In this document: one piece after another, positions 10,425 to 29,168 of the stretch
Layout: each line of letters begins with the position of its first letter
How positions within the stretch are numbered: the stretch's first letter is position 1
Source of the DNA: an uncultured Alphaproteobacteria bacterium
GTDB taxonomy: Bacteria > Pseudomonadota > Alphaproteobacteria > Rhizobiales > Beijerinckiaceae
Reading direction: 5' to 3'
DNA length: 64,000 bases
NCBI GenBank assembly: GCA_963697595.1
Contig: CAVOON010000002.1
Location: 15,564 to 79,563 of the forward strand
The notes under the pieces: generated by a model
What the model was told of the DNA's origin: nothing
Database searches by the model: none
Seen by the model: only the letters and a program-made list of their open reading frames with translations
Program-made: the position numbers and the translations under genes

Positions 10425-10471
10425 TGGTGAGCGCGCCGGGGCTCGAACCCGGGACCCTCTGATTAAAAGTC
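10425..10471. repeat. att core: 47-bp duplicate of the tRNA-Lys 3' half
   Basis: TGGTGAGCGCGCCGGGGCTCGAACCCGGGACCCTCTGATTAAAAGTC is identical to 29093-29139; flanks diverge on both sides. Confidence 0.97.
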
Positions 10472-10587
10472 TGTTATACGCCATACTATGTGTTTCTATG
10501 GGCTACGCTCCATTACAATAAATAGCTGAGATTACAGTGATCGTCTTACTATAGCTTTCGACGCTCTACCCTCCTATTCTATCCCGC

Positions 10588-10609
10588 CTGGTGACACATT
10601 GGTGACACG
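10588..10609. repeat. Integrase arm-type site (left): tandem TGGTGACAC
   Basis: CTGGTGACACATTGGTGACACG matches 29014-29035 at 21 of 22 positions. Confidence 0.7.
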
Positions 10610-10690
10610 GATGGATAATCAGTCGGGACGCCCTCGCATCGCTCGCTCGCTCGGCGCATTGCATATTCAAGTAGGACAGTAGGGGCCAAA

Positions 10691-10793
10691 AGCCGTCCAA
10701 GCCGTCCGCGCCGTAGAATATAGATATATATCAATACCTTGTGAAAAACCGTCGGTCGTCCAAAGCCGTCCATAACCGCCCCCGAGCCGTCCA
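10691..10793. repeat. Left cluster of AGCCGTCCA 9-mers around an AT-rich tract
   Basis: Exact copies at 10691, 10764 and 10785; near copies at 10700 and 10754; AT tract AGAATATAGATATATATCAATA between them. Confidence 0.8.
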
Positions 10794-10794
10794 A

Positions 10795-12079
10795 ATGCCA
10801 AAGATCACGAAACGCCTCATTGACGCGATCGAGCCCAGCGCCGAGCGCATAATCGTTTGGGATTCCGAGATAAAAGGCTTTGGCATGATCGCGTTGCCGA
10901 GCGGCCTTCGGTCGTTCTTTGTGCAATATCGCAACGAAAGTGGCCGCAAGCGTCGCCTCACTCTTGGACGGTTTCGGCGTGATGACCGCTGAAGGGGCGC
11001 GAAAAGCGGCGCGCGATGCGTTGGCGACGGTCGGAAGGGGCGTCGATCCCGTCGAAGATCGTCAGGCGCTACGCGCCGCGCCTAGCGTGTCACAATTGCT
11101 CGATCGCTACCTCGCTGAGCATGTGGACGTTCACAACGCCTCAAGGACCGCCGACGGTGTTCGCTTCGCGATTAAGAGGCATATTCTCCCGCGCCTCGGA
11201 ACGCTGAGGGCTGCCGCGGTCACTCGGCAGGATGTGCTCAAATTGCATGGGGCGATGCAAGCGACGCCGCGCCACGCCAATCTAACCCTTTCGATCCTGT
11301 CGAAAGCGTTCAATCTCGCCGAACTTTGGGGAATTCGACCAGAAAACTCCAATCCCTGTCGCCTGGTGCCGCGCTATCCGGAATCCCATCGCGAGCGCTT
11401 CCTTTCCGCCGACGAGCTCGCGCTTCTCGGGCGTGCTCTGCGAGAGGCGGAGTCTCCCGGGCTGCCGTGGCGCGAGAGGGCGGGTGCGAACGTGAAGCAT
11501 CTGGCTAAGGAAGAAAACCGATTTACGCCGATTAGCGCGCCCGCCCTGGAGGCTATCCGCCTACTGTTATTCACAGGAGCCAGGCTGTCTGAAATACTCG
11601 AACTGAAATGGGAGCATGTTGACCTAGCTCGGGGCTTGATCGCGCTGCCGACTCGCAAGGGCGGCTCGCGTCGCCCACATCCGGTGAGTACGATGGCGCT
11701 GGCGGTTCTCGCCAATATTGAGCGTGAACAAGGATCGCCATGGGTCTTGCCGGCTCCAAAAAACGCCCAAAAGTTTCTGACTAAATCCGTTGTTGAAAAC
11801 GCCTGGCAGCGAATTCGGGAACACGTGGGAATTCCGGATCTTCGGCTTCACGATTTGCGACATACGACCGGGACTTATGCGTCACAGGCGGGCGTGAACG
11901 CGTTCCAGGTCCGCGACCTCTTGCGCCACGCCAACATTTCAATGACGGGCCGTTACGCCAATCGAGATGACGATCCAACGCGCTCGATATCCGATATTGT
12001 CGGAGAGCGGATCGCTGCTGGATTAGAGGGGCGGGCGCTGGGCGAGGTTGTGCCGTTCAAAAGGCCTAGGCACAGGTAA
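10795..12079 (+). CDS. Tyrosine integrase with N-terminal arm-DNA-binding domain; apparent +1 frameshift at TTT 10972-10974
   Basis: MPKITKRLIDA..WDSEIKGFG...RRLTLGRF joins GVMTAEGARKAA when one T is removed. Catalytic motifs TGARLSE, RLHDLRHT, LRHANISMTGRY are present. Confidence 0.93.
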
Positions 12080-12282
12080 CAAGCTCACCAAGGAATGGGA
12101 AGCCTCTCGTTACCCACGTCGGTAACATGCGGACGTAAGAACAGCCCGCATTGAGACATTCGAACACGCGATAACGTTCTGCTCAAAAGCGGTCCAACTT
12201 ATTGCCCAAACTGAGCGCCTCCGGCGCTTCGTAATTCGCGGGCCGAAGGGCTAATTAAAGCGTCTTATAATGCTCCGGAGAC

Positions 12283-12310
12283 TTGGCAAGGGTTGCGTTT
12301 GCGCCATAAT
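12283..12310 (+). promoter_or_regulatory. Putative sigma70 promoter TTGGCA-N16-CATAAT of the peptidase-cyclase operon
   Basis: Near-consensus hexamers 37 bp upstream of ATG 12348. Confidence 0.45.
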
Positions 12311-12347
12311 GCCCTATTTTAATTCCGGGAGATTCGATATATTTGAG

Positions 12348-12884
12348 ATGGCGGAACAGACCAGCAACCCGGTGCCCGTAGGGGCGCAGAAAGCCGTTAT
12401 CTGGGCTTTCGCGGAGCGAATCGCAAGGGAGCTTAAGTTCAAGCCCAGCGACGCAATAGAATTGCTTGTTCTTCGGCTCGGCGGCAAGATTGAATACAAG
12501 AGCCCCACCCGACAGGACGGCCGATTGCCAGAATCGATTATCGTTCGATCTACAAAGGACTTTACAATCTATCTGCCGAGCATGACGTCGCCGCAACGTG
12601 ATAGGTTCACAATCGCACATGAACTCGGGCATTTTTGGTTGCATTATCCACTTGCAGCGAAAAAGGTTCCTGGTTTGCCGATGATGGCTACACGTTGGGT
12701 TGATGAATTAGATTCTGAGCTCGTTCGGACCGAGTGGGAAGCTAACTGGTTTGCTGCAGCTTTTCTTATGCCAGAAGTTCAATTTAGGGCTGCGTATAAT
12801 AAAGGCGGGGCCGATTTCGCCGCCTGCGAATTCAATGTAAGCGCGCATGCTGCAAGGGTGCGAGCGAAAAGCCTTTCTCTCTAG
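12348..12884 (+). CDS. ImmA/IrrE (Peptidase M78) zinc metallopeptidase, no N-terminal XRE HTH
   Basis: RDRFTIAHELGH (HExxH) and EWEANWFAAAFLMP motifs; the start could be as far upstream as 12270. Confidence 0.9.
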   Translation: MAEQTSNPVPVGAQKAVIWAFAERIARELKFKPSDAIELLVLRLGGKIEYKSPTRQDGRLPESIIVRSTKDFTIYLPSMTSPQRDRFTIAHELGHFWLHYPLAAKKVPGLPMMATRWVDELDSELVRTEWEANWFAAAFLMPEVQFRAAYNKGGADFAACEFNVSAHAARVRAKSLSL

Positions 12885-12892
12885 GTTGAAAC

Positions 12893-13981
12893 ATGGGGAT
12901 TTGTCCGAGCTACCGGCTCCGTCTCTTCATGTCCGTCGATCTGGTTGGGTCTACCGAGTTTAAAACGGGAGAGGGCAAAGATAGGGGAAATACTACCGAC
13001 CCTCACCCAAGGTGGGTGCAGGAAACAAAAAGATTTTATGTCAGCTTCCCTAAGTTTTTGCAGAGTCATTTTAGGGATGAATCTCCAAGATTTGGCATAA
13101 TTGAGAATGAGAGCGCGCCTAAGCTATGGAAAACAATCGGAGACGAGGTGGTTTTTTGCGTGAGAGTTCATAATTTAGAGCATTTCACTGCATGCGTTAC
13201 ATCCTTTATAAGGGCTTTAAGAGACTATGGAAGGCAATTGGAGAACGATGGGTTCCTTGACGTCAAGGGAACTATATGGGTCGGTGCCTTTCCAGCCCCA
13301 AATACAAGCGTAATGATATCTGGTTGCGATAGCAATTCTGGATATAACACCAAAATAGACGAGAACTATTGCGAGGAATATGAGCAAGCAGCTGACGATG
13401 AGCCGCGGAACTTTGATTTTTTAGGCAGAGACATTGATTTAGGATTTCGGATCGCAAAGCATGCAAGAGCAGAGGATCTCGCGTTATCATGTGAGGCCGC
13501 ATTTCTACTATGTGAAGCAAATAAGGCTCATCAATTTCATGAGAAATTTAATTTTAATGGCCGGGACGTCTTAAAGGGCGTCATGCGCGGCAAACCATAC
13601 CCGGTTGTAACCATAGATACGGAGCGTAATAATCTTAAATCAGAAATTGCAGATCTTGAGAGTAATTTATCCGGTGGCGGAGGTGCAAATGTAAACGTTA
13701 ACAGTCTTAGTAGATTTCTAACACTGTTATTTGGCGTAGAGAAAATTGCTTTTCCTGTTTTGCCAAAGCGTGGGCACGCTATTGAAGCCATGCCAAGTGA
13801 TTACAATGAGTTCGTTGGCCTTTGGCAGGAGGAGCAGTTCGAGATTACTTCTCGCGAGGAAGGAGAAGATCGTTCGGCGACTGAAGACTCCCCACCAGCG
13901 CAAGAGGGAAAAACAATCGACGAACAAGTCAACGAGCTATCTGCCAATATCCAGCCCATAGGCGAGACAGAGGATGATTGA
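12893..13981 (+). CDS. Divergent class III nucleotidyl-cyclase-like protein with acidic C-terminal tail
   Basis: Ordered motifs FMSVDLVGST (D16), WKTIGDEVV (K80, D84), FDFLGRDIDLGFRI (D175, D182, R186) and LKGV match the class III cyclase pattern. Confidence 0.7.
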   Translation: MGICPSYRLRLFMSVDLVGSTEFKTGEGKDRGNTTDPHPRWVQETKRFYVSFPKFLQSHFRDESPRFGIIENESAPKLWKTIGDEVVFCVRVHNLEHFTACVTSFIRALRDYGRQLENDGFLDVKGTIWVGAFPAPNTSVMISGCDSNSGYNTKIDENYCEEYEQAADDEPRNFDFLGRDIDLGFRIAKHARAEDLALSCEAAFLLCEANKAHQFHEKFNFNGRDVLKGVMRGKPYPVVTIDTERNNLKSEIADLESNLSGGGGANVNVNSLSRFLTLLFGVEKIAFPVLPKRGHAIEAMPSDYNEFVGLWQEEQFEITSREEGEDRSATEDSPPAQEGKTIDEQVNELSANIQPIGETEDD

Positions 13982-14109
13982 GCGCGGCGCACTGGACGAC
14001 AGTGGTATTTCTCGCCATTCTCAACGCGGTCCTGATCCTTGCGCCGCCGTATCTCGGGCAAATGCAACGAAGTAATGAGGTCACAGCCCCGCGGGAGAAC
14101 GCGGACGCT

Positions 14110-14400
14110 TCAAAGGTGTTCCATCGTCTGGAGAATTGTTTCGCAAGTCTCACGTGCGCTGCGCCCATCGTCGGCATGGCCCGTCCCGCTATTGAATGGC
14201 GCGCCGCCCGGGCCAATCTGCACAGCCCAGAACCATCGCCCATCATGCGGGCCGCCGCTGACTCGGTAAATGCGCGCCGCGGGAAGGTTGCCGAGCAAAA
14301 GCGACCAATCGTCCGCGAGAACTTCAACCACGCCATCAATCAGCGTGAACGCCGTTCGCCGCCATTTGAAGGATGCAGGGTCGGAATACGCGTTAGGCAT
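14110..14400 (-). CDS. Small hypothetical phage-type protein
   Basis: Start overlaps the SRAP stop; DW..LG.LPAARIYRVSGGPHDGRWFW looks like natural protein sequence. Confidence 0.65.
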   Translation of the reverse strand: MPNAYSDPASFKWRRTAFTLIDGVVEVLADDWSLLLGNLPAARIYRVSGGPHDGRWFWAVQIGPGGAPFNSGTGHADDGRSARETCETILQTMEHL

Positions 14401-15064
14401 TTTCGATCGGCTCGATAAGCGTCGAGTCATCGTCGCCTGCCCCGGCCTTATTCACGCGTGTAGAGACGATCCATTCTTGCAAAGCATCTTCCGGCAGCGA
14501 GTGCAGCAGTGTGGCAGCGGTTTCGCCCCTCAACCACGCTTCGGCGTCGTGCCAATCGAGAATGACAGGCATGCGGTCATGAAAGCGTTGCATCCAATTA
14601 TTCGCCCCGCCGACGATGATAGTCGCGTTTGGAAGATCGTCGCCGCCATCAAGGCCGCTCCAATGATCCCATAGGCCAGCTAACGCCAGAGGCCAGCCGT
14701 CGCGCGACGTGAAATAGTGCGGCGTCTTCGCCCCTTTCGCTCCTGTCCATTCATAGAAGCCGGAAGCCGGGATGATGCAGCGTCGATATTTGAACGCCCC
14801 GCGAAACATCGGTCTTTCAAGCACCGTTTCAGCGCGGGCGTTGAAGGTGGCGGGAAGCTCTTTGAGCGGCTTTTTCCACCAGGAGGGCACAAGGCCCCAA
14901 TACATCGGGACAAGCTCATTGCCGCGTTCGCCAGCGCGAATGACCTCTATCGGCGTCGTAGGGGCGATGTTGAAACGCGGCGCGAGATTGCGCGGCTGGC
15001 CGATTAGATCGGCTAAGCGATGGATTTCCGCCCATGAGAGATTCTGAGTGAAGCGTCCGCACAT
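14393..15064 (-). CDS. SOS response-associated peptidase (SRAP, YedK/HMCES family)
   Basis: N-terminal MCGRF, RFNIAPT, WGLVPSW, FNARAET, RRCIIPASGFYEW, HDRMPVIL. Confidence 0.95.
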   Translation of the reverse strand: MCGRFTQNLSWAEIHRLADLIGQPRNLAPRFNIAPTTPIEVIRAGERGNELVPMYWGLVPSWWKKPLKELPATFNARAETVLERPMFRGAFKYRRCIIPASGFYEWTGAKGAKTPHYFTSRDGWPLALAGLWDHWSGLDGGDDLPNATIIVGGANNWMQRFHDRMPVILDWHDAEAWLRGETAATLLHSLPEDALQEWIVSTRVNKAGAGDDDSTLIEPIENA

Positions 15065-15171
15065 GGCGAGGATCGTAACGCGGCGGCCGTCGAACGGAAA
15101 CCAACCTTCGCCATATTTGGCTCACGCCACCCCGCTCGCGATCGTCCATCTGCGATCCGCGGTGATGAGAT

Positions 15172-15378: not shown

Positions 15379-15383
15379 TCGCG

Positions 15384-16079
15384 TTAGCCGGGAGAGCCCG
15401 TAAGCTCATCGTGAGCCTTAAACGTGCTGGGGGTGAAAGGCCAAAGGTGGCGAATGAAACTCGCCTTCCACCCAATATCCAATGAATATTTTTCTGGGCG
15501 TCCGTATGAGGCCATCGCCCTGTTATATGCGACTGCGTTGACGGCATACATGCACGGCGGCTCTTCGGCATAAATCAAGGTCAGCCGTCTTTCCAGATTA
15601 TTCAAGTTATCATGCCCATTTGCATCGGCGAGCACGCTATAAATTTGCTTTCTTAATCCGGCGTGCAAGCGAGCCTTCCCACTCAAATCAAAGACAAGAT
15701 CAAGCAGCCCAACGAGTGTTGTGAAGGCTGGAATTGCGTGAGGGTAGGTTTCTTTAAGTGGCGACAATGCGGCGGTCCCGGACGCAACGACTAAGAACAT
15801 CGCAGCACGGTGCGTCCAAGCAAAAAAGCGTTCTCTATCTTCGTGATAGAGAGCGCTCGCTAGACACCTAATTCTAAAATCATCGATTCCGTCTATTTGC
15901 TGTCCCTCGGCGGTCGGACGGGAGGCGGAGCTTTGGTCTGACTGTCCTGCCGGCCAATTCCGTGATCCTTCGCTAGATCTGGATGCCCCCTCGACGGTTG
16001 AGGCTTTGGCGGTGGAGGCGGTGGTGGTGGGGGAGACGGCTTTTTCTTCTCGGTCATTTGGTTTAATATCATTTGTCAT
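15384..16079 (-). CDS. SLATT-like two-transmembrane protein
   Basis: After a disordered S/T-rich N-terminus: ALYHEDRERFF, TM1 AAMFLVVASGTAAL, TM2 AIPAFTTLVGLLDLVFDL, ARLH..LR, EEPP, AYN. Recognised by pattern only. Confidence 0.55.
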   Translation of the reverse strand: MTNDIKPNDREEKAVSPTTTASTAKASTVEGASRSSEGSRNWPAGQSDQSSASRPTAEGQQIDGIDDFRIRCLASALYHEDRERFFAWTHRAAMFLVVASGTAALSPLKETYPHAIPAFTTLVGLLDLVFDLSGKARLHAGLRKQIYSVLADANGHDNLNNLERRLTLIYAEEPPCMYAVNAVAYNRAMASYGRPEKYSLDIGWKASFIRHLWPFTPSTFKAHDELTGSPG

Positions 16080-16399: not shown

Positions 16400-16882
16400 T
16401 CATTTGCAAGCTTTCCCGGCCGCGCGCCAGTCAAACCAGATGCGTCGGCGCGCGTCGTCCAGCGTGATCTTTCCGGCGCATGTCGCCCGCGACAGGCAGG
16501 CCTCGATTGCGTCTTTCTCTCCGGCTTCGTCCCACGGCTGTAATTCGAGGTTTCGAAGATCTGAAGGCGCGCCTCCAAGCGCGAGCGGTATCCTGTGATC
16601 CAGTTCGAAGTCGACAAGGAGCTCTTCGGGGATTTCCAGCTCACGAATGAGTTTGATTTTAACAGCCGCCGTGTAGCGCGGCGAGGGCCGCACAGTCTTC
16701 GTCCAGCCGGGAAGGCATATCGTCGAAGCGATGGTCGCCTGGGTTACGGATGGGTTAACGGGCAAATCGGCGGAGAGGGCGGCATCGCTCGCATTCGCCA
16801 TAGCGAATAGCATTGCCGAAAACGCCAGGCGGGACTTTCGATGTGATATCGCTTCTTCGCTGCAAACGGTAGCTGAAATCAT
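16400..16882 (-). CDS. Exported HNH-motif protein
   Basis: Signal-like RKSRLAFSAMLFAMANASDAALSA; NPSVTQATI..TIC, ELDHRIPLALGG..D..NL..QP, KD..E. Confidence 0.7.
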   Translation of the reverse strand: MISATVCSEEAISHRKSRLAFSAMLFAMANASDAALSADLPVNPSVTQATIASTICLPGWTKTVRPSPRYTAAVKIKLIRELEIPEELLVDFELDHRIPLALGGAPSDLRNLELQPWDEAGEKDAIEACLSRATCAGKITLDDARRRIWFDWRAAGKACK

Positions 16883-17110
16883 GGGGTCTCTTTTACACAA
16901 TGCGCTATAGCAGCCGGTGTAGTTCGGCTCTTCGACTTTTGGAAGTCTTTCGTTATGGCGCGGGCCTCGGTGGGCACGCGGCAAACGCGATCAAGAGCCG
17001 TATAGCCTACGCGCCTTCCGTCAGGCCCTCGGTAGCCCGGGCGACCGAGCCGCGTGCTCACGCGCGCGAACCGGCGAGGCACACTCGCCGCGTTGGGTGC
17101 TAGGGCCTCT

Positions 17111-18117: not shown

Positions 18118-20031
18118 TCATTGACCCGGGGCCATGCTGACGCCGGTGGGACCGCTGAGATTGCCATGGGCATTGATCTGCTGTTCGACCTTGACGACAA
18201 AATCGGGGGAGGGCGAGACTTCGACTTTGAGGCCGATATTTGCGGAGCCCTCAAGACGCACCGGCGTCGATCCCTCGCCTTCCGCAGACGCGCCAGTGGA
18301 TTTGAGCGCGCGCATGCGCTTGAACACCGAAGATCCGGCCTCATGCGGGGCCTCGGGCAATTCCCAAGGCATGCGGAAATTCGACTTGATCCAAGGATGC
18401 ATTTCCGCCTTGTCATTCGCGATATCGGCGGCAGACTTGTTCATCAGGCCACCATAAATGGCGTTGCGGTTGTAGATCGCCGAAGCGCCAAACGCAGCGG
18501 CGCCGAAGAGACCGGCGGTCGCCAGTGACGGCAGTGGAAGGCCAGCCGATGCGCCGCCCAGCAGCATCTGCGCGCCCTTGATCCCGAGATAGCCAGTAAG
18601 CGCCGTTCCGACCACTCCGGCTCCTGTCGCCTCTTTTGCGACCGTCGGATAATCGGAAAACACTTTCGCGGCGCGCGCTGCGGTCTCAGAGAGCACATTG
18701 ATGCCGTCCGTCAACGGCTGCAGAAAAGGCCTTCCGGCGGCGGCGGCGAGATCATCAACCTTGGCTTTGAGGCTGCTCGCCGCCATGCCAAAGTCCTCGT
18801 CTATAATCTTCCTAACGGCGGCGGTTCCGGGCGCGCCGTGTGTCATCGCGCGGTCTTTTTCATAAAGACCATGCTGCGTCAGTTGTTCGGCGACGAATTG
18901 TCCGGCGACGCGGTTCGAAAAGAGATGCGCTACCTCTTCTTGAACCTTTCTCGGCTCTGTAATTCCGGCCTTGTCGAGCGCCTTCTTGAGGTAGGTTTGC
19001 ACCCACTTATCCGGGTCGCTGATCGCGAGGTCCGAGCCATAGACGCCGCCAGGCATAATGCCTTTGACCGAGCCCGTTGACGTGTAAACGACCTTATTTG
19101 GATCAACGAGACCAAGCCTTACCATCTCCTCAGCAGCCATTTTCTGCATACGGCCGCCGATGATTGCCGAATAAAAAGATCCTCCCGCCGTGCCTGCCTG
19201 AGCGCCGCCGTGATGCTGAATCATTGTTGGTAGGACGCCGGCAACAAATTCTGGGGAGTAACCCATCGTCGCGGCGCGCCCATATTGCGCCGCTTCGAAG
19301 AACTCATAGGGCTTGATCGTATCGCCAAAGACGTTGATCGCCTTCGCGATGCCCTCGATATAATTGCGAAACTTGTCGATGTCCTGCGTCGTGCCGGCAA
19401 GCTCCGCCGCCTTGATTAGTTTATCGAAGCTTTCGTTAATCTCCTCCGTTGAGGCGTTTGGATGCGCATGTTGCTCAAGCACCCGCAACTTCAACAAAGG
19501 CTCGGAAACGCGAGCCGCCTCTTCATAAGAGCCGACGCTCGCGCGCTGATTGCGCAGCATATGCATGATATCGGCCTGGCGCACCGATCTATATTTTCCC
19601 GCGAGCTCCATCGCTTTCGCGTTCGCCTCAGCAATCTCACCCTCGCTCATGCCGGCATTGGACATGCGAATGTTTTCATGTAACTGCGCCTGAGCCTGTT
19701 TGACGATTTCCTTGACGATCGGCGCGGCGACAGCGGAGGCGGCGCCGATGGTGAGGCCCGTCTGGATCGCCCTTTCGCGCGCAGCCTGATTGCGCTCCCA
19801 GAAGCCGGGACCGGGCGCGACGGAGCTCGCCATCCTGCGCGCGACGTCAAGATGCTGCTGCTGCTTGATCCAGACGTCGGACATGCCGCGCGCCATGGAG
19901 TCCACGCGGCGACTGGCCTGCATCGCCGTGGCTTCCAGCCCGCGCAGCTTTTGCGCCACCTGTGCGAAGGTCGCGCCGGTCTTGTCTTGGGCGCTTATGA
20001 TTGCGCGGGTTTCGATAGTCTTGAGCGTCAT
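18118..20031 (-). CDS. Phage tail tape-measure-like protein (637 aa)
   Basis: N-terminal IISAQDKTGATFAQVAQKL; long Ala/Gly-rich helical body; GGAQAGTA...GR...LGLVDPNKV...PGG..GSDL...DP..W core; hydrophobic Gly-rich segments; C-terminal GSANIGLKVEV. Resembles myovirus-type TMPs from memory. Confidence 0.75.
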   Translation of the reverse strand: MTLKTIETRAIISAQDKTGATFAQVAQKLRGLEATAMQASRRVDSMARGMSDVWIKQQQHLDVARRMASSVAPGPGFWERNQAARERAIQTGLTIGAASAVAAPIVKEIVKQAQAQLHENIRMSNAGMSEGEIAEANAKAMELAGKYRSVRQADIMHMLRNQRASVGSYEEAARVSEPLLKLRVLEQHAHPNASTEEINESFDKLIKAAELAGTTQDIDKFRNYIEGIAKAINVFGDTIKPYEFFEAAQYGRAATMGYSPEFVAGVLPTMIQHHGGAQAGTAGGSFYSAIIGGRMQKMAAEEMVRLGLVDPNKVVYTSTGSVKGIMPGGVYGSDLAISDPDKWVQTYLKKALDKAGITEPRKVQEEVAHLFSNRVAGQFVAEQLTQHGLYEKDRAMTHGAPGTAAVRKIIDEDFGMAASSLKAKVDDLAAAAGRPFLQPLTDGINVLSETAARAAKVFSDYPTVAKEATGAGVVGTALTGYLGIKGAQMLLGGASAGLPLPSLATAGLFGAAAFGASAIYNRNAIYGGLMNKSAADIANDKAEMHPWIKSNFRMPWELPEAPHEAGSSVFKRMRALKSTGASAEGEGSTPVRLEGSANIGLKVEVSPSPDFVVKVEQQINAHGNLSGPTGVSMAPGQ

Positions 20032-20101: not shown

Positions 20102-20362
20102 TCACGCTGCCGAAGCGGCCAGTGCAATGACGTCGACGCCTTCGACACCCGCGCATTCGACGGCGCAATGCTTTCCAAACATCGCAAGAAATTCGTCGGC
20201 GAGCGTAGCCGGGAAGGTCAGCGGCGTTCCGGGCGCGTGCTCGATTATGTCGATGCGGCCGGATGTCTGGTTGTTGTGCTCGTCAAGGACAGGCGGCGCG
20301 GACGTTTTGCCGTTTCGGCCGTGCAGTGTGAACGGAAGCTTGATTGTCTTTGTGAGGGACAT
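20102..20362 (-). CDS. Hypothetical protein (86 aa) immediately upstream of TMP
   Basis: RBS AAGGA, co-oriented operon position. Confidence 0.6.
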   Translation of the reverse strand: MSLTKTIKLPFTLHGRNGKTSAPPVLDEHNNQTSGRIDIIEHAPGTPLTFPATLADEFLAMFGKHCAVECAGVEGVDVIALAASAA

Positions 20363-21898: not shown

Positions 21899-22498
21899 TT
21901 ATTGATTTTTAAGGTGTTTCTCGCGCAATCGTTTCCCCAAGGCGCGGACAAATCGCGACGGTTTATCTTCATCCGGGCCTATGTTCGACTGCAATGCGCA
22001 GGATAATCGCTGAGCAATAGACGCAATGACTTTGTGCCATCCTGCGTCGCTTTTGCATAGGAGATCCATAAGGAACAATTGGCCTGCTGTATCCTCTACA
22101 GCGATGAATAAAAGGAACGTGCCTATCATGGAAAGGCTGTTGATCATCCAATCGTATTCGTGAATATCGTCAGTTTTTTCCCAAGCCTCTGCGGTTTCGA
22201 TGATATAGCGTGAGCGCTTCAACACAGCGCTCCGGTATCCGGTTGATATTTTCAGAATAATCTCGTCGACGTGACTTAGGCTAATCGGTTGAGACGAGGT
22301 AATCATGATTGCGGCCCGCGCCGCCGCATATTTGTTTAAGCCAAACACACGAAGCGATAGAAAGATTGCAACCTCAAACCGAATGTCTCTTTTGAGCAAT
22401 GAGACAGTAGAGCCTTTGGGACGTCCGGGCTCCCCCTTCGCTCTTATGAGCTTCTTGTTCGCCCGTTTCAGTGCGAGTCTCTCTTTGATCGATTTCAT
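21899..22498 (-). CDS. Hypothetical basic protein with AT-hook-like GRPKGS motif
   Basis: AT-richer ORF directly downstream of the XRE gene; K/R-rich N-terminus, PGRPKGS. Confidence 0.65.
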   Translation of the reverse strand: MKSIKERLALKRANKKLIRAKGEPGRPKGSTVSLLKRDIRFEVAIFLSLRVFGLNKYAAARAAIMITSSQPISLSHVDEIILKISTGYRSAVLKRSRYIIETAEAWEKTDDIHEYDWMINSLSMIGTFLLFIAVEDTAGQLFLMDLLCKSDAGWHKVIASIAQRLSCALQSNIGPDEDKPSRFVRALGKRLREKHLKNQ

Positions 22499-22556: not shown

Positions 22557-22826
22557 CTAAGTTGCGGCCTTTTCAGCGCGACCTTTGCGCAGGCGAACGC
22601 CTGGGCCTTCCCCGTTTTCAGCAAGGAAAAGAATGCCCGCGGTCTCGAGTGCGCGTCGAATGTCGGCGAGCGTTCGGCCGTAGGGCGTTCGGTTTCCAGC
22701 TTCAAAATCGGCAATGGTCTTCTTTGCGACCTTAGAGCCAGCCAACGCCGTCGCTTCTTCGAGCTGTTCTTGTGTCCAGCCGAGTAGGGCTCGCCCGGCG
22801 CGACATTGCTCCCGCGAAAAAGTCAT
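22557..22826 (-). CDS. XRE-family HTH regulator
   Basis: QCRAGRALLGWTQEQL...TIADFEAG.RTP...TLADIRRALE.AGI.F...NGEGPGVRLRK, the typical alphaproteobacterial XRE. Confidence 0.92.
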   Translation of the reverse strand: MTFSREQCRAGRALLGWTQEQLEEATALAGSKVAKKTIADFEAGNRTPYGRTLADIRRALETAGILFLAENGEGPGVRLRKGRAEKAAT

Positions 22827-22853
22827 TTCCAGCGTAACCCTTCTCTTTTAGAG

Positions 22854-22892: not shown

Positions 22893-22988
22893 AGGCAAGG
22901 GACGGTCGCGCATTGCTTTGTGATTTGACGGAAGTCCGCCGCAGTCCGTCTCAATCATCGATCGCGACTTTTTACGAGGGAGAAACTT

Positions 22989-23420
22989 ATGTCCTCCAAG
23001 CAAACCCGCCGCATATTTCTCGCCGCCGGCTCCGCTGGCGCGGTGTTTGGCGCTTTATCCGTCGCTGCGGCAGGAGAAGCTGCGCCTGATGCCCGCCTTC
23101 CCGCGATCGCGGGCGGCGGTTTGCCCGCGCCGTTGTCCGGCGCGTTAGCCCAAGCCGTCGAGCGCCACAAGCTCACCTGGAGGGCTCTTAACAGCGGTGT
23201 TATTGGCGGCGAAGATATTCCAGATCATCTGATAGATGCAGAAAGCGAAGCGCTTTGGCATCTTGCGACGCTTCCTTGCGCTGACGATGGCGAACTTCTC
23301 GCGAAGCTGCGCTACCTGGTGGCCTATGAAAAAGGCGTCGCGCTAGGGCGCGCCTTCGACATGAGCGCGCATGGCTCGCTCCCGATCGCCCTCGATCTTT
23401 ATTTCACTCAAGGAGCATGA
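22989..23420 (+). CDS. Hypothetical protein with twin-arginine-like N-terminus
   Basis: TRRIFLAAGSAGAVFGALSVAAAGEA; RBS GGGAG. Confidence 0.75.
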   Translation: MSSKQTRRIFLAAGSAGAVFGALSVAAAGEAAPDARLPAIAGGGLPAPLSGALAQAVERHKLTWRALNSGVIGGEDIPDHLIDAESEALWHLATLPCADDGELLAKLRYLVAYEKGVALGRAFDMSAHGSLPIALDLYFTQGA

Positions 23421-24163
23421 TCATGACTACGGTTTCGATCTCTCGACGCTCCCTCGCTGGCGCGACGGCCGTCGCTGCTGTTGGTCTAATCGTCCCACTG
23501 GCCGATGCGAGCTCGCCGGCTCTAAGCGATCTTTGGCGCGAATGGCGTTCCCTGCGGCAGCCCCATCATGAGTCGTTGGCGATGCTGGAAGCTGCATTGG
23601 ATGCGCTTCCGGCCTGGGCCAAACCCGGTCCGCGATATATGAAAAAAGACGGCTCGCTTTCGGGTCCTGAAGTGGCTTGGCCAATGGACGTGGCGACTTT
23701 GCCGCCGGAATATGGCGCCTACAGAGTAGTTCGCCCCTCTCCCGAAGATTGTCGGCAGAGATATGAACGAAGCAAGCTAGCAAATGTAGCCAATGCCAAG
23801 ATTTCGTATGTAAAGGGGCTACGTCGGATCGCGCGCCTTCGGATGGCCAAGCGCGAAGAGGAGCGGAAACTCGAAATTCCAGAATTGCAGCGCAGATACG
23901 ATGCGATCGTTGAGAGAATCTATGAGCTTGCGTATGCGATTTTGAATTTAGATGACCATTCGCCGGATGCGACCGCCGGCAAAGTATTGATGGCGCTGTA
24001 TTTTGACGTCGACGACAATATGTTGTCCGGCGATGCGCTCGGCCATCATGAAGCAGTGCTGAAATCTCTCCGGCCGCATCTGACGGGACATATTGCAACA
24101 GACGTCGCCGCCATCCTCGACAATAAGCAAGCCAGACTTTGTGAGCAGCCTTTTTGGGCATGA
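23417..24163 (+). CDS. Hypothetical protein with twin-arginine-like N-terminus
   Basis: ISRRSLAGATAVAAVGLIVPLADA; ATGA overlap with the previous gene. Confidence 0.75.
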   Translation: MIMTTVSISRRSLAGATAVAAVGLIVPLADASSPALSDLWREWRSLRQPHHESLAMLEAALDALPAWAKPGPRYMKKDGSLSGPEVAWPMDVATLPPEYGAYRVVRPSPEDCRQRYERSKLANVANAKISYVKGLRRIARLRMAKREEERKLEIPELQRRYDAIVERIYELAYAILNLDDHSPDATAGKVLMALYFDVDDNMLSGDALGHHEAVLKSLRPHLTGHIATDVAAILDNKQARLCEQPFWA

Positions 24164-24432
24164 GAGCCACGAACGATCGCAAATCGGGGTCGCAGCCTGC
24201 AACTTCGAAACTTTCTGACTGGATTGGACAAGCGGATATGTCGACAACTTTGCTCCGCGCCGGCGCCTATGACCGGCGCTCCATTATGCGCAAGGCTCAC
24301 GCTGAATTTCGCGCGGCTAAACGGCGCGGAAAGGCCTGGACTTTTGCGCGCTGTCTGACCTTCGCATGGGCGATCGCGCGGGAGCAACGCGCGCGATGCT
24401 CTCGAGAAAGCGTCAAAAAATTGGCCGCGTGA
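24160..24432 (+). CDS. Small basic hypothetical phage-type protein
   Basis: ATGA overlap with the previous stop (alternative start 24238); YDRRSIMRKAH...W.F..CL..AW pattern. Confidence 0.6.
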   Translation: MRATNDRKSGSQPATSKLSDWIGQADMSTTLLRAGAYDRRSIMRKAHAEFRAAKRRGKAWTFARCLTFAWAIAREQRARCSRESVKKLAA

Positions 24433-24662
24433 AAGCTGTTTGGTTCTGCTGAGAGCCACACTTTGTGGCGTCTCGTCATTCGATGATTTGGGCGTATTTT
24501 GTCGTAAACGAGTGTAGTTCTCGCGCTCCAATATCACAGCAAAACAATAGGTTGTAACGTCTAATTATTTTGGCAATGGCCGCGCCCGCTACTTTTTTTG
24601 AAGATGACGCATCGAAACTGAAAGCGCTTGCGCGAGTCGCATGCTGAAATCGGGGTGGCTAC

Positions 24663-24929
24663 ATGAAAAAAGACGTGAGTCCGGTCGCATCTGAGTTGCG
24701 CCCAACTGATCAAGATGCGCCAGTAGCTCTACTCAATGAATTGCAGGCTGCGGATTATCTCAAGCTTTCCGTGCGCACCCTTCAACAATGGCGCGTGTCA
24801 GGTCGCGGGCCTCTGTTCACAAAATTGTCTCGCGCTGTTCGTTACCGGCGCGCCGATCTCGAAGCCTATGTCTCTCGCGGTGTGGCGCAGTCAACAACGC
24901 AAGCCGACCTAGCGAAAAGGACGGCGTGA
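24663..24929 (+). CDS. AlpA/excisionase-like HTH protein
   Basis: LLNELQAADYLKLSVRTLQQWR..G.GP.F.KL..AVRYRRADLEAY. Confidence 0.9.
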   Translation: MKKDVSPVASELRPTDQDAPVALLNELQAADYLKLSVRTLQQWRVSGRGPLFTKLSRAVRYRRADLEAYVSRGVAQSTTQADLAKRTA

Positions 24930-24934
24930 AGGCC

Positions 24935-25246
24935 ATGATTCGCGGCCGCACAATAGCTTTCACTCGCATCGCCGAGGCGGCGGCCCGCCAGTCGGAGACC
25001 GTTCTTTCGCGTTGGCTTCCCGACGGCCACAAAGACGCGGGCGAATGGGTGGCGCGCAATCCAAAGCGCCTGGATAAGAAGCCCGGAAGCTTCAAAATCA
25101 ATTTGCGCACCGGCCGTTGGGGCGATTTCGCTACAGGCGACAAAGGTGGCGACCTCATAGCGCTGGCCGCTTACCTCTTTAATCTTGATCAAGCGCAGGC
25201 GGCGCAGCGCGTCGCCGAAATGATGGGAATCGACCCCTTTGAATGA
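24935..25246 (+). CDS. Primase accessory (zinc-binding-domain-like) N-terminal module
   Basis: RWLPDG....EW.ARNP.R.D..PGSFKINL.TGRWGDFATGDKGGDLI.LAAYL, typical of primase N-terminal domains but without Cys ligands. Confidence 0.75.
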   Translation: MIRGRTIAFTRIAEAAARQSETVLSRWLPDGHKDAGEWVARNPKRLDKKPGSFKINLRTGRWGDFATGDKGGDLIALAAYLFNLDQAQAAQRVAEMMGIDPFE

Positions 25247-27422
25247 TCCCTTCGCGCCGATCGAAACTGCTAAGCCGAATGGTCGCGGGAATGCGCCCGC
25301 ATCGGCCGCCCCGCAGTGGATATTGATTGCTCCCGTTCCGCATGACGCTCTGGCGCCTCCGGCGCGTCATCCCAAACTTGGCGCACCATCCTCTCGTTGG
25401 GCCTATCACGACGCTTCTGGCGCCTTGCTCGGCTATATCCTCCGTTTCGACGGCGTCGACGGAAAGCAGTTTCGCCCGTTGGCGCTCTATGCGCCCGCGG
25501 CGGGCGGCGCGCCTGAGTGGCGCTGGGAGGCCTGGCCCGTTCCGCGCCCACTCTATGGGCTTGATCGCCTGGCCGCGCGACGTTCCGCTTTCGTCGTCAT
25601 CTGCGAGGGCGAGAAATCGGCTGACGCTGCGTCGCGTCTGTTGCCGGAGTTCGTTTGCGTCACCTCGCCGAACGGCTCGAAAAGCGCCGCCAAGGCCGAT
25701 TGGAGCGCTCTGCGCGGGCGGGACGTGACCGTCTGGCGCGATGCTGACGCGCCAGGGCTGGAATATGCGCAGAAGGTCGCCGAGCTATGCGCAGCGGCCG
25801 GCGCGGCCTCCATCGCCATCGTTACGGTGCCCGAAGGCGTCGCGGAAGGCTGGGACGCTGCCGACGCCGAGCAAGACGGCTGGACGCCGGCGCGCGCTCT
25901 CGACTTGATCGGTGCGGCGGAATCCTTTGAAAAAACCGCTGAGCCGGAAGCGAAAAAGGGAAAAGCAAAAAAAGAGCGCCGCACGCCGCAGCGCGATTTG
26001 TTCATGGCTCTGACGAAGGACTCCGCGTTGTGGCATGGGCCGGATTATGAAGCCTTCGTAACAGTTCCAATAAACTCGCATCGCGAAAGTTGGCCGGTGC
26101 GCTCGCAGGCTTTCCGCAGATGGCTCGCCATGCGCGCCTATGAGGCTCACGGCGTTGCGCCGGGAGGACAGGCGCTTGAAGATGTTATTCGCATCCTGGA
26201 GGCTCGCGCCGTCAGCGAGGGCGTGTTGCAAACGCCGTGGCGCCGGGTCGGCGCGCGCGATGGGAAGCTTTACATCGATCTTGCGGATTCGAAATGGCGC
26301 GCCGTCGAAATTCGCCCCACGGGTCGCACGCTCCTTGAGGCCCATGATCTGCCATTCGTGCGCTCTCCAAGAATGCGCGAACTCTGTTCGCCGCTCGGTG
26401 GATCTTCTATCAACGAGCTGCGTCCTTTCGCCAACGTCGCCAGCGATGATGACTTTATCCTTGTCGTCGCCTGGCTGGTCGCATCCTTTCGCGAGCGTGG
26501 GCCATATCCGATCTTGGTTTTGAACGGCGAGCAAGGATCTGGAAAATCCAGCTTTTCACGTCTGCTACGAAGCCTGCTTGATCCATCCTCTCCGGCTATC
26601 CAGGGGCCTCCGAAAGACGAACAAAATTTGATCGTCTCGGCGCAAAACGGGCATGTGCTCGCCTTCGACAATCTGTCGCATATTTCGCCGGAATTATCGG
26701 ACGGCCTTTGTCGTCTCGCAACGGGCAGCGGCTTCGCCGTGCGAGCGCTGCATACTGATAAGGATGAAAATATTTTCGACGGCGCTCGGCCGATCATCGT
26801 CAATGGAATACCGTCGCTTGCCGAGAGGCCGGATTTAAACGAGCGCGCGATCGTCGTGAGACTTGCTACCATTCCGGACGATAAACGCCGCCCTGAAGAC
26901 GAGCTCGAAGCTGAATGGGAAAAAGCGCGCCCGCGCGTGCTGGGCGCCATCTGCGCCGCACTGTCGACGGCGCTGAAAAACATCGGAAAGACGCGACTTG
27001 CGCGCTCCGGCCGCATGGCGGACTTCGAAAAATGGATCACGGCCGCTGAGCCGGGGCTTGATTGGGAACTGGGCACTTTTTCTCGCGCCTATTTGTCAAA
27101 TCGCAAAGACAGCGCCGAAACGGCGTTCGAAGGCGACCTGGTGGCGATGGCCATTCGCGAATTGCTCGTTTCCGATGACTGTTATTACTGGACTGGAACC
27201 GCCACTGAATTGCTCAATCGCCTTGGCGTGATTGTCGGCGAGTCGACACGCCAAATGCGCCTTTGGCCGAAGACGGCGCAAGGTCTCGGCAATAGCCTGG
27301 AGCGCTCGGCGCCGCTGTTGCGCGGCAAAGGAATCACAATCGAGCGAAAACATTCTGGCGTTCGATCGATCATCCTTTCGCGCGCGCGCGAGCCGGCGAC
27401 TCCGCCTGCAAACACGATATGA
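25239..27422 (+). CDS. Primase (TOPRIM)-helicase (P-loop ATPase) fusion replication protein
   Basis: ICEGEKSADAA and VWRDADAPG (TOPRIM); VLNGEQGSGKS (Walker A); LAFDN (Walker B); C-terminal winged-helix-like WP......G..L.R..P.LR..GI.I. Confidence 0.9.
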   Translation: MNDPFAPIETAKPNGRGNAPASAAPQWILIAPVPHDALAPPARHPKLGAPSSRWAYHDASGALLGYILRFDGVDGKQFRPLALYAPAAGGAPEWRWEAWPVPRPLYGLDRLAARRSAFVVICEGEKSADAASRLLPEFVCVTSPNGSKSAAKADWSALRGRDVTVWRDADAPGLEYAQKVAELCAAAGAASIAIVTVPEGVAEGWDAADAEQDGWTPARALDLIGAAESFEKTAEPEAKKGKAKKERRTPQRDLFMALTKDSALWHGPDYEAFVTVPINSHRESWPVRSQAFRRWLAMRAYEAHGVAPGGQALEDVIRILEARAVSEGVLQTPWRRVGARDGKLYIDLADSKWRAVEIRPTGRTLLEAHDLPFVRSPRMRELCSPLGGSSINELRPFANVASDDDFILVVAWLVASFRERGPYPILVLNGEQGSGKSSFSRLLRSLLDPSSPAIQGPPKDEQNLIVSAQNGHVLAFDNLSHISPELSDGLCRLATGSGFAVRALHTDKDENIFDGARPIIVNGIPSLAERPDLNERAIVVRLATIPDDKRRPEDELEAEWEKARPRVLGAICAALSTALKNIGKTRLARSGRMADFEKWITAAEPGLDWELGTFSRAYLSNRKDSAETAFEGDLVAMAIRELLVSDDCYYWTGTATELLNRLGVIVGESTRQMRLWPKTAQGLGNSLERSAPLLRGKGITIERKHSGVRSIILSRAREPATPPANTI

Positions 27423-27442
27423 CCACGTAGCTACGCTCCTAG

Positions 27443-27826
27443 ATGAAGGAAGCCGGATCAATGCAAAATGAGAATGCGGCGGAGAGTGAAAGCGCCCCAG
27501 TTCCGCTCGCGACATGGGCTCTCGCGCAGACAACGAAAAGCCCTTGCGCGAAGGCCGTTTTGCTGGCGCTCGCGGCAAGCGCCGGCGCTGACGACATTGC
27601 GTTCGTCACGCCGCGCCAGTTAGGGATCCAAACTGAGCTAACCGCCTACAATGCTTCAAAGTGGCTCAAGCGACTAATAACGCTTGGCCTCGCAAAGCGA
27701 TTAGGCGCGCCGAATCTGACTACGCCGACCGCCTATCAATTGAGGCCAAGCCAGCGCGAAAGCGAACGCCGCATGGCCCATATGGAAGTGAAGGTCGCCG
27801 GAGAACCGATCTATGACGAACGCTAA
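27443..27826 (+). CDS. Stand-alone winged-helix (phage replication-initiator N-terminus-like) protein, copy 1
   Basis: ATWALAQTTKSPCAKAVLLALA...TPRQLGIQTELT.....KWLKRL..LGL (alternative start 27461). Confidence 0.75.
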   Translation: MKEAGSMQNENAAESESAPVPLATWALAQTTKSPCAKAVLLALAASAGADDIAFVTPRQLGIQTELTAYNASKWLKRLITLGLAKRLGAPNLTTPTAYQLRPSQRESERRMAHMEVKVAGEPIYDER

Positions 27827-28139
27827 TTGTCCGACCGTCTCCGGCTCCGCGCGGCAGAAAAAGCGCGGAAAGATTCCGGTTATGACGTGGGCGCTTGAAC
27901 AGACCACAGAAAGCCCTAGCGCCAAGGCTGTATTATTGGCGCTCGCGATCGCTGCAAATGCAAAAGGCGAGGCTCTGGTGTCTCAAAATACGTTGGCCTT
28001 CCAGACGAACCAATCCATAGACTCCGTGCAGCGTCGCTTGAAACATCTTTTACGAGAGGGTTTCATTGTGCGCACCAAAGAACCAAATGCTTTCAAGGGC
28101 ACGCCCGCTGGATACACGCTGCAAAGCATGGTGCGCTAA
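27813..28139 (+). CDS. Stand-alone winged-helix protein, copy 2 (paralog)
   Basis: MTWALEQTTESPSAKAVLLALA...VSQNTLAFQTNQSIDSVQRRLKHL..EGFI. Confidence 0.75.
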   Translation: MTNANCPTVSGSARQKKRGKIPVMTWALEQTTESPSAKAVLLALAIAANAKGEALVSQNTLAFQTNQSIDSVQRRLKHLLREGFIVRTKEPNAFKGTPAGYTLQSMVR

Positions 28140-28816
28140 CCCTCGATCTGCTCCGCGTGGCAGCTCCTGACGAGCGGGATGCGCGGACGAACCCGGGGGA
28201 TGGGCGGACGCTCGGCAAACTCGTGACAAATCGAGCGCCGCACGCCGTGGCCTCTCCCTGCGGCGCCCTCCGCGATTAGGTTGACGCGCTTGGCGCTTGG
28301 CCTTCCACGCCGCGTCTCCCGGCCGCCATGGCGCTCCCATTTCGACATCGCTGCCGCCCGTGCAGCGCTTGCATTGTGCTAGAGCGGATGCGCGTCGCTG
28401 GCGTGAATGGTGTGACCTCGGCGCTCCCGTTCCCCTTTCGACTTCGATACCCGCACACGTCCAGCAATGTCGCGCTGGCTCAGGCGCGCCATTATCGAGG
28501 GGTCTGAAGGTCTCACGGCTGGCGCGATGAGCGGGTCCTTCCTGGAGGGTATGCCCAGTGCGGGCCCACGCGCCCCGGAATTTCGCTAGTAAACCTGAAT
28601 TGAAATAGGGTTTACACGGTTGACACCGAGGCAAGAAACGCCTGCAAAATCAACTATTTTTCCCGCAAAAAGTGCGCGCTTCGGCTGAGCGCGCGCCAGT
28701 TCCGTTCCCCTTTTCGAGCCTCCAAGATCGGTTCAATGACGCGGCTCGCCATCGACTCACCGAGAACCTGAAAATCCGGTTGTCGGTGAGGCCACAACCT
28801 ACCGCCTGGACAACAT

Positions 28817-28968
28817 TGGACGGCTCCACTTTTCAGCCGTCCACCCGCTGCGCCTTTAAAACCGCAGCTTTGGACGGCTTGGACGGCTTGGACGGCTTCT
28901 CCTTTTAAAAGTGAAAAATAAAGAGAGAGAGGGGTAGGGGAGAGCGAAGTGGACCCCATTGGACGGGT
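28817..28968. repeat. Right cluster of TGGACGGCT (reverse AGCCGTCCA) 9-mers, origin-like
   Basis: Three perfect tandem copies at 28871-28897; inverted pair at 28817/28835; near copy at 28960; AT/purine tract TTTTAAAAGTGAAAAATAAAGAGAGAGAGGGG follows. Confidence 0.85.
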
Positions 28969-29013
28969 GCTGGAAATGATGCCGAGAGGGCGGCGGTTGA
29001 GAGCCACAGCGGA

Positions 29014-29035
29014 CTGGTGACATATTGGTGACACG
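29014..29035. repeat. Integrase arm-type site (right)
   Basis: CTGGTGACATATTGGTGACACG, 21/22 identical to 10588-10609. Confidence 0.7.
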
Positions 29036-29092
29036 CGCCAAACCCAGCGATTGGGTGCGCTGAAAATTCCACCGTAAGGCTTTGATTTTAAG

Positions 29093-29168
29093 TGGTGAGC
29101 GCGCCGGGGCTCGAACCCGGGACCCTCTGATTAAAAGTCAGATGCTCTACCGACTGAGCTACGCGCTC
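29093..29168 (-). tRNA. tRNA-Lys (anticodon UUU)
   Basis: 76 nt GAGCGCGTAGCTCAGTCGGTAGAGCATCTGACTTTTAATCAGAGGGTCCCGGGTTCGAGCCCCGGCGCGCTCACCA; full cloverleaf with encoded CCA. Confidence 0.98.

Follow-up and report, generated by a model that had tools for sequence, protein, structure and literature searches.

The element considered here is an 18.7-kb island inserted at the tRNA-Lys gene in a 64-kb stretch of DNA (hereinafter, the window) from an uncultured alphaproteobacterium of the family Beijerinckiaceae (contig CAVOON010000002.1, assembly GCA_963697595.1). Until 2025-26, phage satellites were thought to take the tails of their helpers unchanged, and, to our knowledge, no satellite-helper system has been described in environmental Alphaproteobacteria related to methanotrophs. 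We tentatively favor the reading that this island is a helper-dependent phage satellite with a backbone similar to that found in PICIs (phage-inducible chromosomal islands) and in P4, which supplies its own tail tape measure protein (TMP). The sequence supports a discrete integrative, self-replicating island as opposed to a decayed prophage, and the hosts of the respective satellite family are Alphaproteobacteria of the Methylocystaceae/Beijerinckiaceae type. The copy in the window appears to be a reduced member of this family: the genes for the tail assembly chaperone (TAC) and for scaffold and protease seem to have been lost or never present, and the integrase frame is broken by one base. 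A satellite that hijacks or remodels the tail of its helper, as suggested in the original prediction for this DNA, is the best-supported interpretation because the TMP recurs in relatives of the island and in small elements with integrase, AlpA and primase genes and no sheath or tube. What did not hold is a family defined by a TMP without head genes, given that the closest relatives carry genes for a scaffold-like protein, S49 protease, TAC and tail completion.

The ends of the island are marked by a perfect 47-nt direct repeat (10425-10471 and 29093-29139) that has no other copy in 9500-30500. The right copy is the 3' 47 nt of tRNA-Lys(TTT), which occupies 29093-29168 on the minus strand and is the only tRNA in the window. 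Just inside the repeats, short motifs are strongly concentrated. Specifically, AGCCGTCCA has 9 matches in the 64 kb against 0.46 expected, of which 8 lie no more than 400 bp inward of the ends, in opposed orientation at the two (three plus at 10691-10793; four minus and one plus at 28817-28897), and TGGTGACAY has 4 matches against 0.32 expected, all at the ends (two at 10589-10608, two at 29015-29034). The features at the ends are:

10425-10471, no strand: attL, a displaced 3' fragment of tRNA-Lys (left copy of the 47-bp repeat)
10589-10793, plus strand: left arm-type repeat cluster, with TGGTGACAC twice (10589, 10600) and AGCCGTCCA three times (10691, 10764, 10785)
28817-29034, no strand: right arm-type repeat cluster, with AGCCGTCCA five times (four minus, one plus) and TGGTGACAY twice
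29093-29168, minus strand: tRNA-Lys(TTT), with attR inside it at 29093-29139 (tRNA scan and repeat)

The motifs are probably arm-type recombinase sites flanking the attP core, perhaps bound by the integrase or by a recombination directionality factor. As they match each other and are confined to the ends, both ends belong to one element, the recombination architecture of which is intact. Outside the repeats lies ordinary chromosome. The left flank encodes an O-antigen ligase and a GT4 glycosyltransferase; the right flank encodes a PhyR-like sigma factor, Dus, a type II secretion system ATPase, an ABC transporter and Lnt. Two other arrangements could be ruled out. The absence of a third att copy excludes tandem islands, and the ordinary chromosomal genes of the flanks exclude a helper prophage in the rest of the window.

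The same island was found among the loci gathered from genomes and metagenomes for comparison (L001-L132). Locus L093, an ENA contig of 18,688 bp, aligns to window positions 10470-29093 and is about 99.9% identical over 10.4-24.5 kb; its 24.5-28.5 kb portion, the primase region, is noisy (ratio of nonsynonymous to synonymous polymorphism, pN/pS, about 0.85; many indels) and looks like merged related primase islands. The ends of L093 coincide exactly with the inner edges of the att repeats, a pattern that assembly graphs produce where occupied and empty (or circular) forms coexist, and of which it may be a hint in that sample, but one to which collapse of the repeat can lead as well. Identical fragments of the island are also present in a single public run, soil metagenome X1, on low-depth contigs without the att junctions.

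All the features on which the original prediction was built, namely, the att repeats, integrase, XRE and AlpA regulators, primase and a TMP-like gene, are indeed there, at the coordinates given. The backbone consists of the following:

10795-12079, plus strand: tyrosine integrase (Arm-DNA-bind_3 and Phage_integrase; Pfam), frame broken
22557-22826, minus strand: XRE-type HTH regulator, presumably a repressor, with 47-62% identity to its counterparts in L008, L089 and L092
22872-22892, no strand: perfect 10+10 palindrome TGTTACACTAaTAGTGTAACA between the XRE and p143 genes
22989-24163, plus strand: two conserved backbone genes, for proteins of 143 aa (p143; 43% to L089) and 248 aa (p248; 50% to L092)
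24663-24929, plus strand: AlpA-type HTH_17 protein, activator or excisionase-like (Pfam)
24938-25246, plus strand: 102-aa primase partner (p102), overlapping the primase start
25239-27422, plus strand: Toprim primase fused to a P-loop NTPase, replication protein (profile scans)
27443-28139, plus strand: two small winged-helix proteins, like the N-terminal domain of replication initiators (profile scans)

Thus listed, the plus-strand block runs p143, p248, AlpA, p102, primase/P-loop protein and the two winged-helix proteins. It diverges from the XRE gene across a 162-bp region holding the palindrome TGTTACACTAaTAGTGTAACA, which is likely to be the operator of the switch. A scan for promoters and terminators gave nothing above chance. 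As a small element without a full set of virion genes, and with its own replication genes and its own, albeit frameshifted, integrase, the island shows two general attributes of a satellite.

The backbone belongs to a large group. The primase family yielded more than 1,388 matches, mostly from Hyphomicrobiales, and a scan of one genome per species gave 80 primase loci, in which the conserved unit is (XRE)-AlpA-p102-primase, with p102 in 73 of the 80, AlpA in 31 and an integrase in 25. The closest relatives with available context, L009 (a Methylocystis metagenome-assembled genome, MAG), L089/L090 and L092, are islands of about 20 kb, not prophages, and the relatives in general come from other soil alphaproteobacteria. 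Compared with L009, L089 and L092, the window proteins are 78-80% identical for integrase (78% for that of L104), 47-57% for XRE, 58% for AlpA, 74-76% for p102 and 74-79% for primase; p143 and p248 each have a counterpart in one relative, L089 and L092, respectively. L009 and L089 are inserted at the same tRNA-Lys as the window island, and L009 also has the arm-site sequence; the right flank of L092 on its contig is an EF-G gene, tRNAs not having been scanned there. No full prophage with the same integrase, XRE, primase and att was found among the 80 primase genome loci or among 41 TMP-related metagenome loci, which came from a scan seeded with a TMP alignment. In L089, a 289-aa open reading frame (ORF) upstream of the primase gene (8644-9513) matches primase residues 338-375 and 451-521 in two segments, at 66-84% identity, and resembles a piece of a second primase gene.

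In the three closest relatives, the primase is followed by a module that encodes a small protein resembling a scaffold or the C-terminus of a protease, a coiled-coil protein of 319-363 aa, a 185-aa protein, Phage_TAC_7 and a TMP, of the PhageMin_Tail type in L009 and L092 and of 836 aa in L089; in L089 alone, this module also includes an S49 protease and a tail-completion/Neck1-like protein. There is no sheath, tube, baseplate, portal or terminase in L009, L089 or L092. This post-primase morphogenesis module is wholly missing from the window, where the TMP gene occupies another place, on the minus strand:

14110-14334, minus strand: small conserved ORF (about 74 aa) that ends the TMP module distally, 68% protein identity to L119, present in L105
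17111-17536, minus strand: 141-aa protein (p141), with homologues (38-41%) just downstream of the TMP in L105 and L119
17619-18047, minus strand: 142-aa protein (p142), directly downstream of the TMP, with 5 relatives among 1.84 billion representative proteins
18118-20031, minus strand: TMP, 637 aa (tblastn and genomic context)
20102-20362, minus strand: 86-aa protein (p86), with homologues (59-62%) upstream of TAC-TMP in L105 and L119
20444-21526, minus strand: all-alpha protein of 292-360 aa (p360), with a 31% homologue at the equivalent position in L105
21492-21821, minus strand: 109-aa ORF (p109), no match in profile scans
21899-22498, minus strand: 199-aa ORF (p199), the first gene after XRE, no match in profile scans

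The product of 18118-20031 is an intact, genuine TMP. It has no match among the Pfam, PHROGs and NCBIfam profiles or in a PDB sequence search, the profile libraries missing it, so that its identity rests on tblastn matches and genomic context. In particular, it is 28% identical over about 290 aa (E 4e-16) to annotated TMPs of P2-like Burkholderia and Ralstonia phages, and its family in the protein database comprises 33 proteins, of which P0002 (58% identity), P0008, P0010 and P0029 proved, upon contig look-up, to be TMP homologues in complete myovirus prophages. In such prophages, the homologues (33-58% identity) lie between the TAC and DNA_circ_N genes, downstream of those for sheath and tube. 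Residues 1-637 of the window TMP align with 1-634 of the TMP of L007, with no stop and no frameshift.

The prophages in question (L002, L004, L006 and L007, from Hyphomicrobiales) are complete, 35-55 kb long, and encode GpA terminase, Portal_2, S49/S78 protease, sheath, tube, TAC, TMP, DNA_circ_N and a Mu gp44-48 baseplate; they share with the island the TMP (33-58%) and no other gene. Phages of this kind are the likely helper type, as we infer from the TMP. Within the protein, the affinities are divided: residues 1-484 are closest to the TMP of phage L006 (58-59%) and the last ~60 residues to the island TMPs of L104, L105, L119 and L009 (52-60%). Judging by these alignments, the window TMP is a mosaic of a phage-like N-terminus and core with an island-type C-terminal end. 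In a neighbor-joining tree, island-borne TMPs are polyphyletic, with one purely island clade (L104, L105, L119, L011), and the window TMP groups with the phage TMP of L006 and the island TMPs of L001 and L008. A TMP is also encoded in Methylocapsa acidiphila B2 (L011, together with a TAC) and in an Enterovirga MAG (L033).

In several islands, the TMP is split into at least two ORFs (L001, 9700-11713; L011, 2365-2817 and 3644-5215; L092, 15144-17530; L119, 3975-6015). Some of the respective contigs bear Flye-style names (e.g., ena:…:contig_689) and may come from long reads, in which case the splits may be sequencing errors, not pseudogenes; in L011, an isolate genome, about 830 bp separate the N-terminal part from the remainder. 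On the 175-kb contig L111, the 10 kb to each side of a full-length TMP homologue (10001-11875) contain no marker recognizable as phage or island.

The neighborhood of the window TMP is a conserved island module. A tblastn comparison of the island proteins with the metagenome loci made three of them informative. L105 has a p360-like protein (31%), p86 (62%), two tandem TACs, TMP and a p141-like protein (38%), and L119 has a 315-aa protein, p86 (59%), two TACs, TMP, a p141-like protein (41%), the 74-aa ORF (68%) and XRE. In L104, a TAC-TMP pair is convergent with the integrase gene. The TACs of L104 and L119 were confirmed as Phage_TAC_7, and a TAC was found altogether in relatives L008, L009, L011, L089, L092, L104, L105 and L119. 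L107 and L132 have the order XRE-AlpA-p102-primase-228 aa-TMP, without a detectable TAC. After dereplication, 36 TMP-family loci extend at least 3.5 kb upstream; 22 of the 36 are accompanied by sheath or tube and 14 are not, and several of these 14 carry XRE-AlpA-primase. In L103 (about 12150) and L124/L125 (about 12470), the TMP is followed by a gpP-like baseplate hub (39-59%), with no sheath or tube in the 10 kb upstream.

The complete minus-strand block of the window is, from left to right, 74-aa ORF, SRAP, 231-aa protein, 194-aa ORF, p141, p142, TMP, p86, p360, p109, p199 and XRE. The 74-aa ORF, which contains RIYRVSGGPHDGRWFWAVQIGPG and has a homologue at the end of the L105 module as well, partly overlaps the stop region of the SRAP gene and is readily missed in ORF lists. 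An apparent match in shared non-coding DNA at 14141-14313 turned out to be this small protein gene. A search for homologues of p360 returned the same island only, which makes this protein an orphan apart from the 31% match in L105.

The claim that head and packaging genes are missing, along with tail, lysis, relaxase and type IV secretion system (T4SS) genes, withstood scrutiny, the profile scans and tblastn agreeing that there is the TMP only. Scans of the main island ORFs against Pfam, PHROGs, NCBIfam and PADLOC revealed no family of any of these six kinds, and, specifically, no capsid, portal, terminase, protease, sheath, tube or baseplate family; nor did profile scans of the island ORFs detect a coupling protein or an oriT-related family. 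When the ORFs of the four complete prophages were compared with the window by tblastn, the TMP was the sole match. For the TAC, the best hit of the hidden Markov model across the island had an E-value of 0.4, versus 1e-19 to 1e-41 in controls, and, since the gap between p86 and TMP is only 70 bp, there is no room for a TAC gene there. The hhalign comparison of the unassigned window ORFs with the coiled-coil, p185, TAC, p179 and scaffold families of the relatives gave no match, and blastn found no non-coding DNA, such as a possible cos, common to the island and the phage loci.

How could such an element function? The following scheme combines sequence features with the analogy of the PICI-like elements (PLEs) of Vibrio. 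The island, integrated at tRNA-Lys by its tyrosine integrase acting at the arm-type sites, an activity predicted from the observed sequence features, would be silenced by the XRE regulator bound at the palindromic operator. Development of a myovirus helper would switch on the rightward AlpA-primase operon, leading to excision and replication. The island TMP could then join tail assembly, yielding chimeric tails in which the sheath, tube and baseplate of the helper are built around the TMP of the satellite. With its helper-like N-terminus and core, this TMP could employ the chaperone and tube of the helper, the C-terminal end being of the island TMP type. The mosaic structure fits such use of helper tail parts because the N-terminus and core are phage-like and the C-terminal end is island-like.

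Several facts weigh against the satellite interpretation. The element is known from sequence, with neither a helper phage nor an excision product, packaging signal or particle on record, and no packaging determinant (terS, cos, capsid-size or other) can be recognized in the window copy. This copy contains no TAC, although most of the examined island relatives (not the L107/L132 type) have one with the TMP, and its TMP gene lies in the variable region between integrase and XRE, on the XRE strand, whereas the closest relatives have theirs after the primase. The two available copies of the island are ~99.9% identical over the TMP region, which leaves no usable ratio of nonsynonymous to synonymous substitution rates (dN/dS) for the TMP. 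Most ORFs next to the TMP are orphans, and the structure models are unusable: the AlphaFold2 single-sequence models of p86 (pLDDT 48) and of the all-alpha p360 (pLDDT 51) were too poor for fold searches.

Finally, the integrase of the window copy carries a +1 frameshift. The gene is spread over two frames, with Arm-DNA-bind_3 profile positions 2-51 in one and positions 51-82 together with the catalytic domain in the next; the shift results from one extra T at about 10972-10974 (CGGTTTCGGC vs CGGTTCGGC). The extra T is missing from the near-identical copy L093 and from L089 and L092, all of which read CGGTTCGGC. It is either a very recent inactivating mutation or a sequencing or assembly error in a homopolymeric T-run.

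The broken integrase is also the starting point for what we consider a doubtful, if serious, possibility, that the satellite family is real and the window copy a decaying remnant of it, a fixed, cargo-bearing island whose TMP has no current role. It would account for the frameshift that L093, L089 and L092 do not have, for the absent TAC, for the disappearance of the post-primase morphogenesis module of L009, L089 and L092, and for unrelated cargo, among it the M78 peptidase, the 362-aa protein and SRAP, that occupies about 5 kb from the integrase to the TMP module. Against decay speak a 1.9-kb TMP ORF that is intact over its full length, two intact arm-site clusters and a perfect 47-bp att repeat. 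Furthermore, an essentially identical island is present in at least two other samples (L093 and X1), and this near-identity indicates that the island is recent or mobile; islands with a TMP and no TAC occur elsewhere (L107 and L132, with XRE-AlpA-primase-TMP); and the frameshift, located in a T-run, may be an assembly error. Compact operons and matching ends had been put forward as arguments against decay: the ends are indeed intact, but the operon argument is weak in view of the frameshifted integrase and the unrelated cargo.

The cargo in the island comprises these genes:

12270-12884, plus strand: ImmA/IrrE-type M78 metallopeptidase (Pfam; best PADLOC match CapP)
12893-13981, plus strand: 362-aa protein (phrog_18024), in a 45% GC stretch
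14393-15064, minus strand: SRAP (YedK-type) protein (Pfam)
15384-16079, minus strand: 231-aa protein (phrog_11791)
16400-16984, minus strand: 194-aa ORF, no database match, HNH-like motif by eye only

The first two of these form a two-gene unit (12270-13981) that shares the 45% GC stretch and may be a defense or signaling cassette. By eye, VDLVGST and KTIGDE in the 362-aa protein recall class III nucleotidyl cyclases, for which Pfam, PADLOC and PDB give no confirmation; PDB sequence searches with the 362-aa, 194-aa and primase proteins returned nothing useful.

A bolder version of the satellite reading, which we regard as rather unlikely, holds that a TMP as the only virion gene suffices to parasitize a contractile-tailed helper. 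Under this version, the TMP would be recombinant, with a helper-like N-terminus and core giving access to the chaperone and tube of the helper. The conserved, island-type C-terminal end would earmark or divert the tails to the benefit of the satellite, or else make them useless to the helper, and the strategy would be widespread in soil and peat Alphaproteobacteria, as represented by the window, L107 and L132.

Quite unlikely, in our estimate, is a role in interference, whereby a TMP without its chaperone would poison myovirus tail assembly in a dominant-negative manner and guard the host population, not serve the transfer of the island itself. Such a role would suit the position of the TMP gene in the variable region between integrase and XRE, where L089/L090 hold a toxin-antitoxin pair and a MarR-like gene. 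Being downstream of the putative repressor gene and on the same strand (that of XRE), the TMP gene could also be expressed in the resting state. The TMP core, 58% identical to a prophage TMP, could compete for helper tail parts, and defense systems have been proven to target tail assembly and the TMP, as exemplified by Tab (PMC10884400) and Rta (PMC12987554). Yet no defense system with a TMP as the effector is known, and PADLOC was blank for the five TMP-flanking ORFs scanned, the TMP itself being outside that scan. Most relatives pair the TMP with a TAC, and the closest ones also with head-assembly genes, which speaks for assembly, not sabotage.

That the island is an ordinary remnant, a myovirus prophage stripped by deletions of every structural gene except the TMP, appears highly improbable. 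Whether homologous loci are full prophages had been singled out by the original prediction as decisive, and the outcome is split: the nearest TMP homologue (58%) does belong to a complete myovirus prophage, as do several others, and the backbone relatives are not prophages. Apart from the TMP, nothing in the island resembles those prophages, and no residual synteny with them was found; the backbone matches the large family of small integrase-AlpA-primase islands, the genes flanking the TMP are common to other islands, not to phages, and the ends carry matching arm sites. As for an integrative mobilizable or conjugative element in which a TMP-like protein has a cell-envelope role in transfer, the membrane-active hydrophobic segments of TMPs and the presence of integrase and replication genes would agree with it, but it is barely conceivable given that profile scans reveal no relaxase, coupling protein, T4SS or oriT-related family, and that, elsewhere, this TMP family occurs solely in tail operons or, beside TACs, in satellite-like islands.

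Under the preferred satellite reading, the concept is not new: TMP-encoding satellites are already known, and novelty lies in the type of backbone, in the host group, in the gradation of module content and in the mosaic variant with TMP only. The Vibrio PLEs, which have genes for a TAC, a TMP and a baseplate hub, make chimeric tails, in which, as has been shown experimentally, the PLE TMP and TAC replace those of the phage and are required for transduction; putative tmp genes have also been noted in PLE-like elements and in capsid-forming PICIs (cf-PICIs) (PMC12987554). Like a PLE, the island is a small integrative satellite with its own TMP and without sheath or tube; its relatives encode a TAC, and L103 and L124 carry the gpP-like hub beside the TMP, the hub-after-TMP arrangement of L103 and L124/L125 recalling the PLE pair of TMP and baseplate hub. 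Unlike the PLEs, the window copy has neither TAC nor hub, and the likeness is one of gene content, no sequence relationship having been seen or tested directly. The island also differs from PLEs in its tyrosine integrase at a tRNA gene, XRE/AlpA switch, Toprim primase and alphaproteobacterial host, and in its presumed helpers, which are temperate myoviruses with lambda-type heads and Mu-type tails, not the lytic ICP1.

In architecture, the closer parallel is with PICIs of Gram-negative bacteria and P4-like elements, which are matched in the terminal integrase, divergent repressor, AlpA followed by primase, size of 10-20 kb, tRNA site and cargo beside the integrase. The gene order of PICIs is found here as int and XRE (minus strand) divergent from p143-p248-AlpA-p102-primase (plus strand). 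Unlike in PICIs, there is no terS, rpp(A), ppi or cpm among the island ORFs, and the relatives have scaffold-like and S49 protease genes; unlike in P4, no psu, sid, delta or epsilon family was detected by Pfam or PHROG in any island ORF. Set against the integrase, alpA and alpha primase of P4, the island has an integrase, an AlpA/HTH_17 protein and a primase with Toprim and Walker A motifs, homology to P4 alpha not being established. In contrast to cf-PICIs, the window includes no capsid, portal, protease, connector or terS of its own: the TMP is its sole morphogenetic gene, whereas the set in the relatives consists of scaffold, S49 protease, TAC, TMP and tail completion protein.

The statement, in the original prediction, that mycobacterial satellites with a TMP and no capsid have been reported was half right. 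The EPIPs of Mycolicibacterium aichiense are satellites that do encode a TMP, and their tail length differs from that of the helper; however, these 11-kb elements, which encode a serine integrase, are described as having a small terminase, a scaffold, a major capsid protein and head-tail adaptors (PMC12822802). The stronger precedent, which the original prediction missed, is that of the Vibrio PLEs. The island is like the EPIPs in being a small TMP-encoding satellite and is set apart from them, by description, by their actinobacterial host, siphovirus-like tails and other gene set.

Should the satellite nature of the island be confirmed, this class of elements is being missed by satellite finders based on capsid or terminase markers. 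Taken together, the gathered loci suggest that the idea of placing a satellite TMP in the tail evolved or spread in a satellite backbone unrelated to that of the PLEs. The mosaic TMP points to regions that may be relevant to compatibility with the helper, and the graded series, from TMP only, via TAC and TMP, to scaffold, protease, TAC, TMP and tail completion protein, could show which parts are needed for hijacking a contractile tail.

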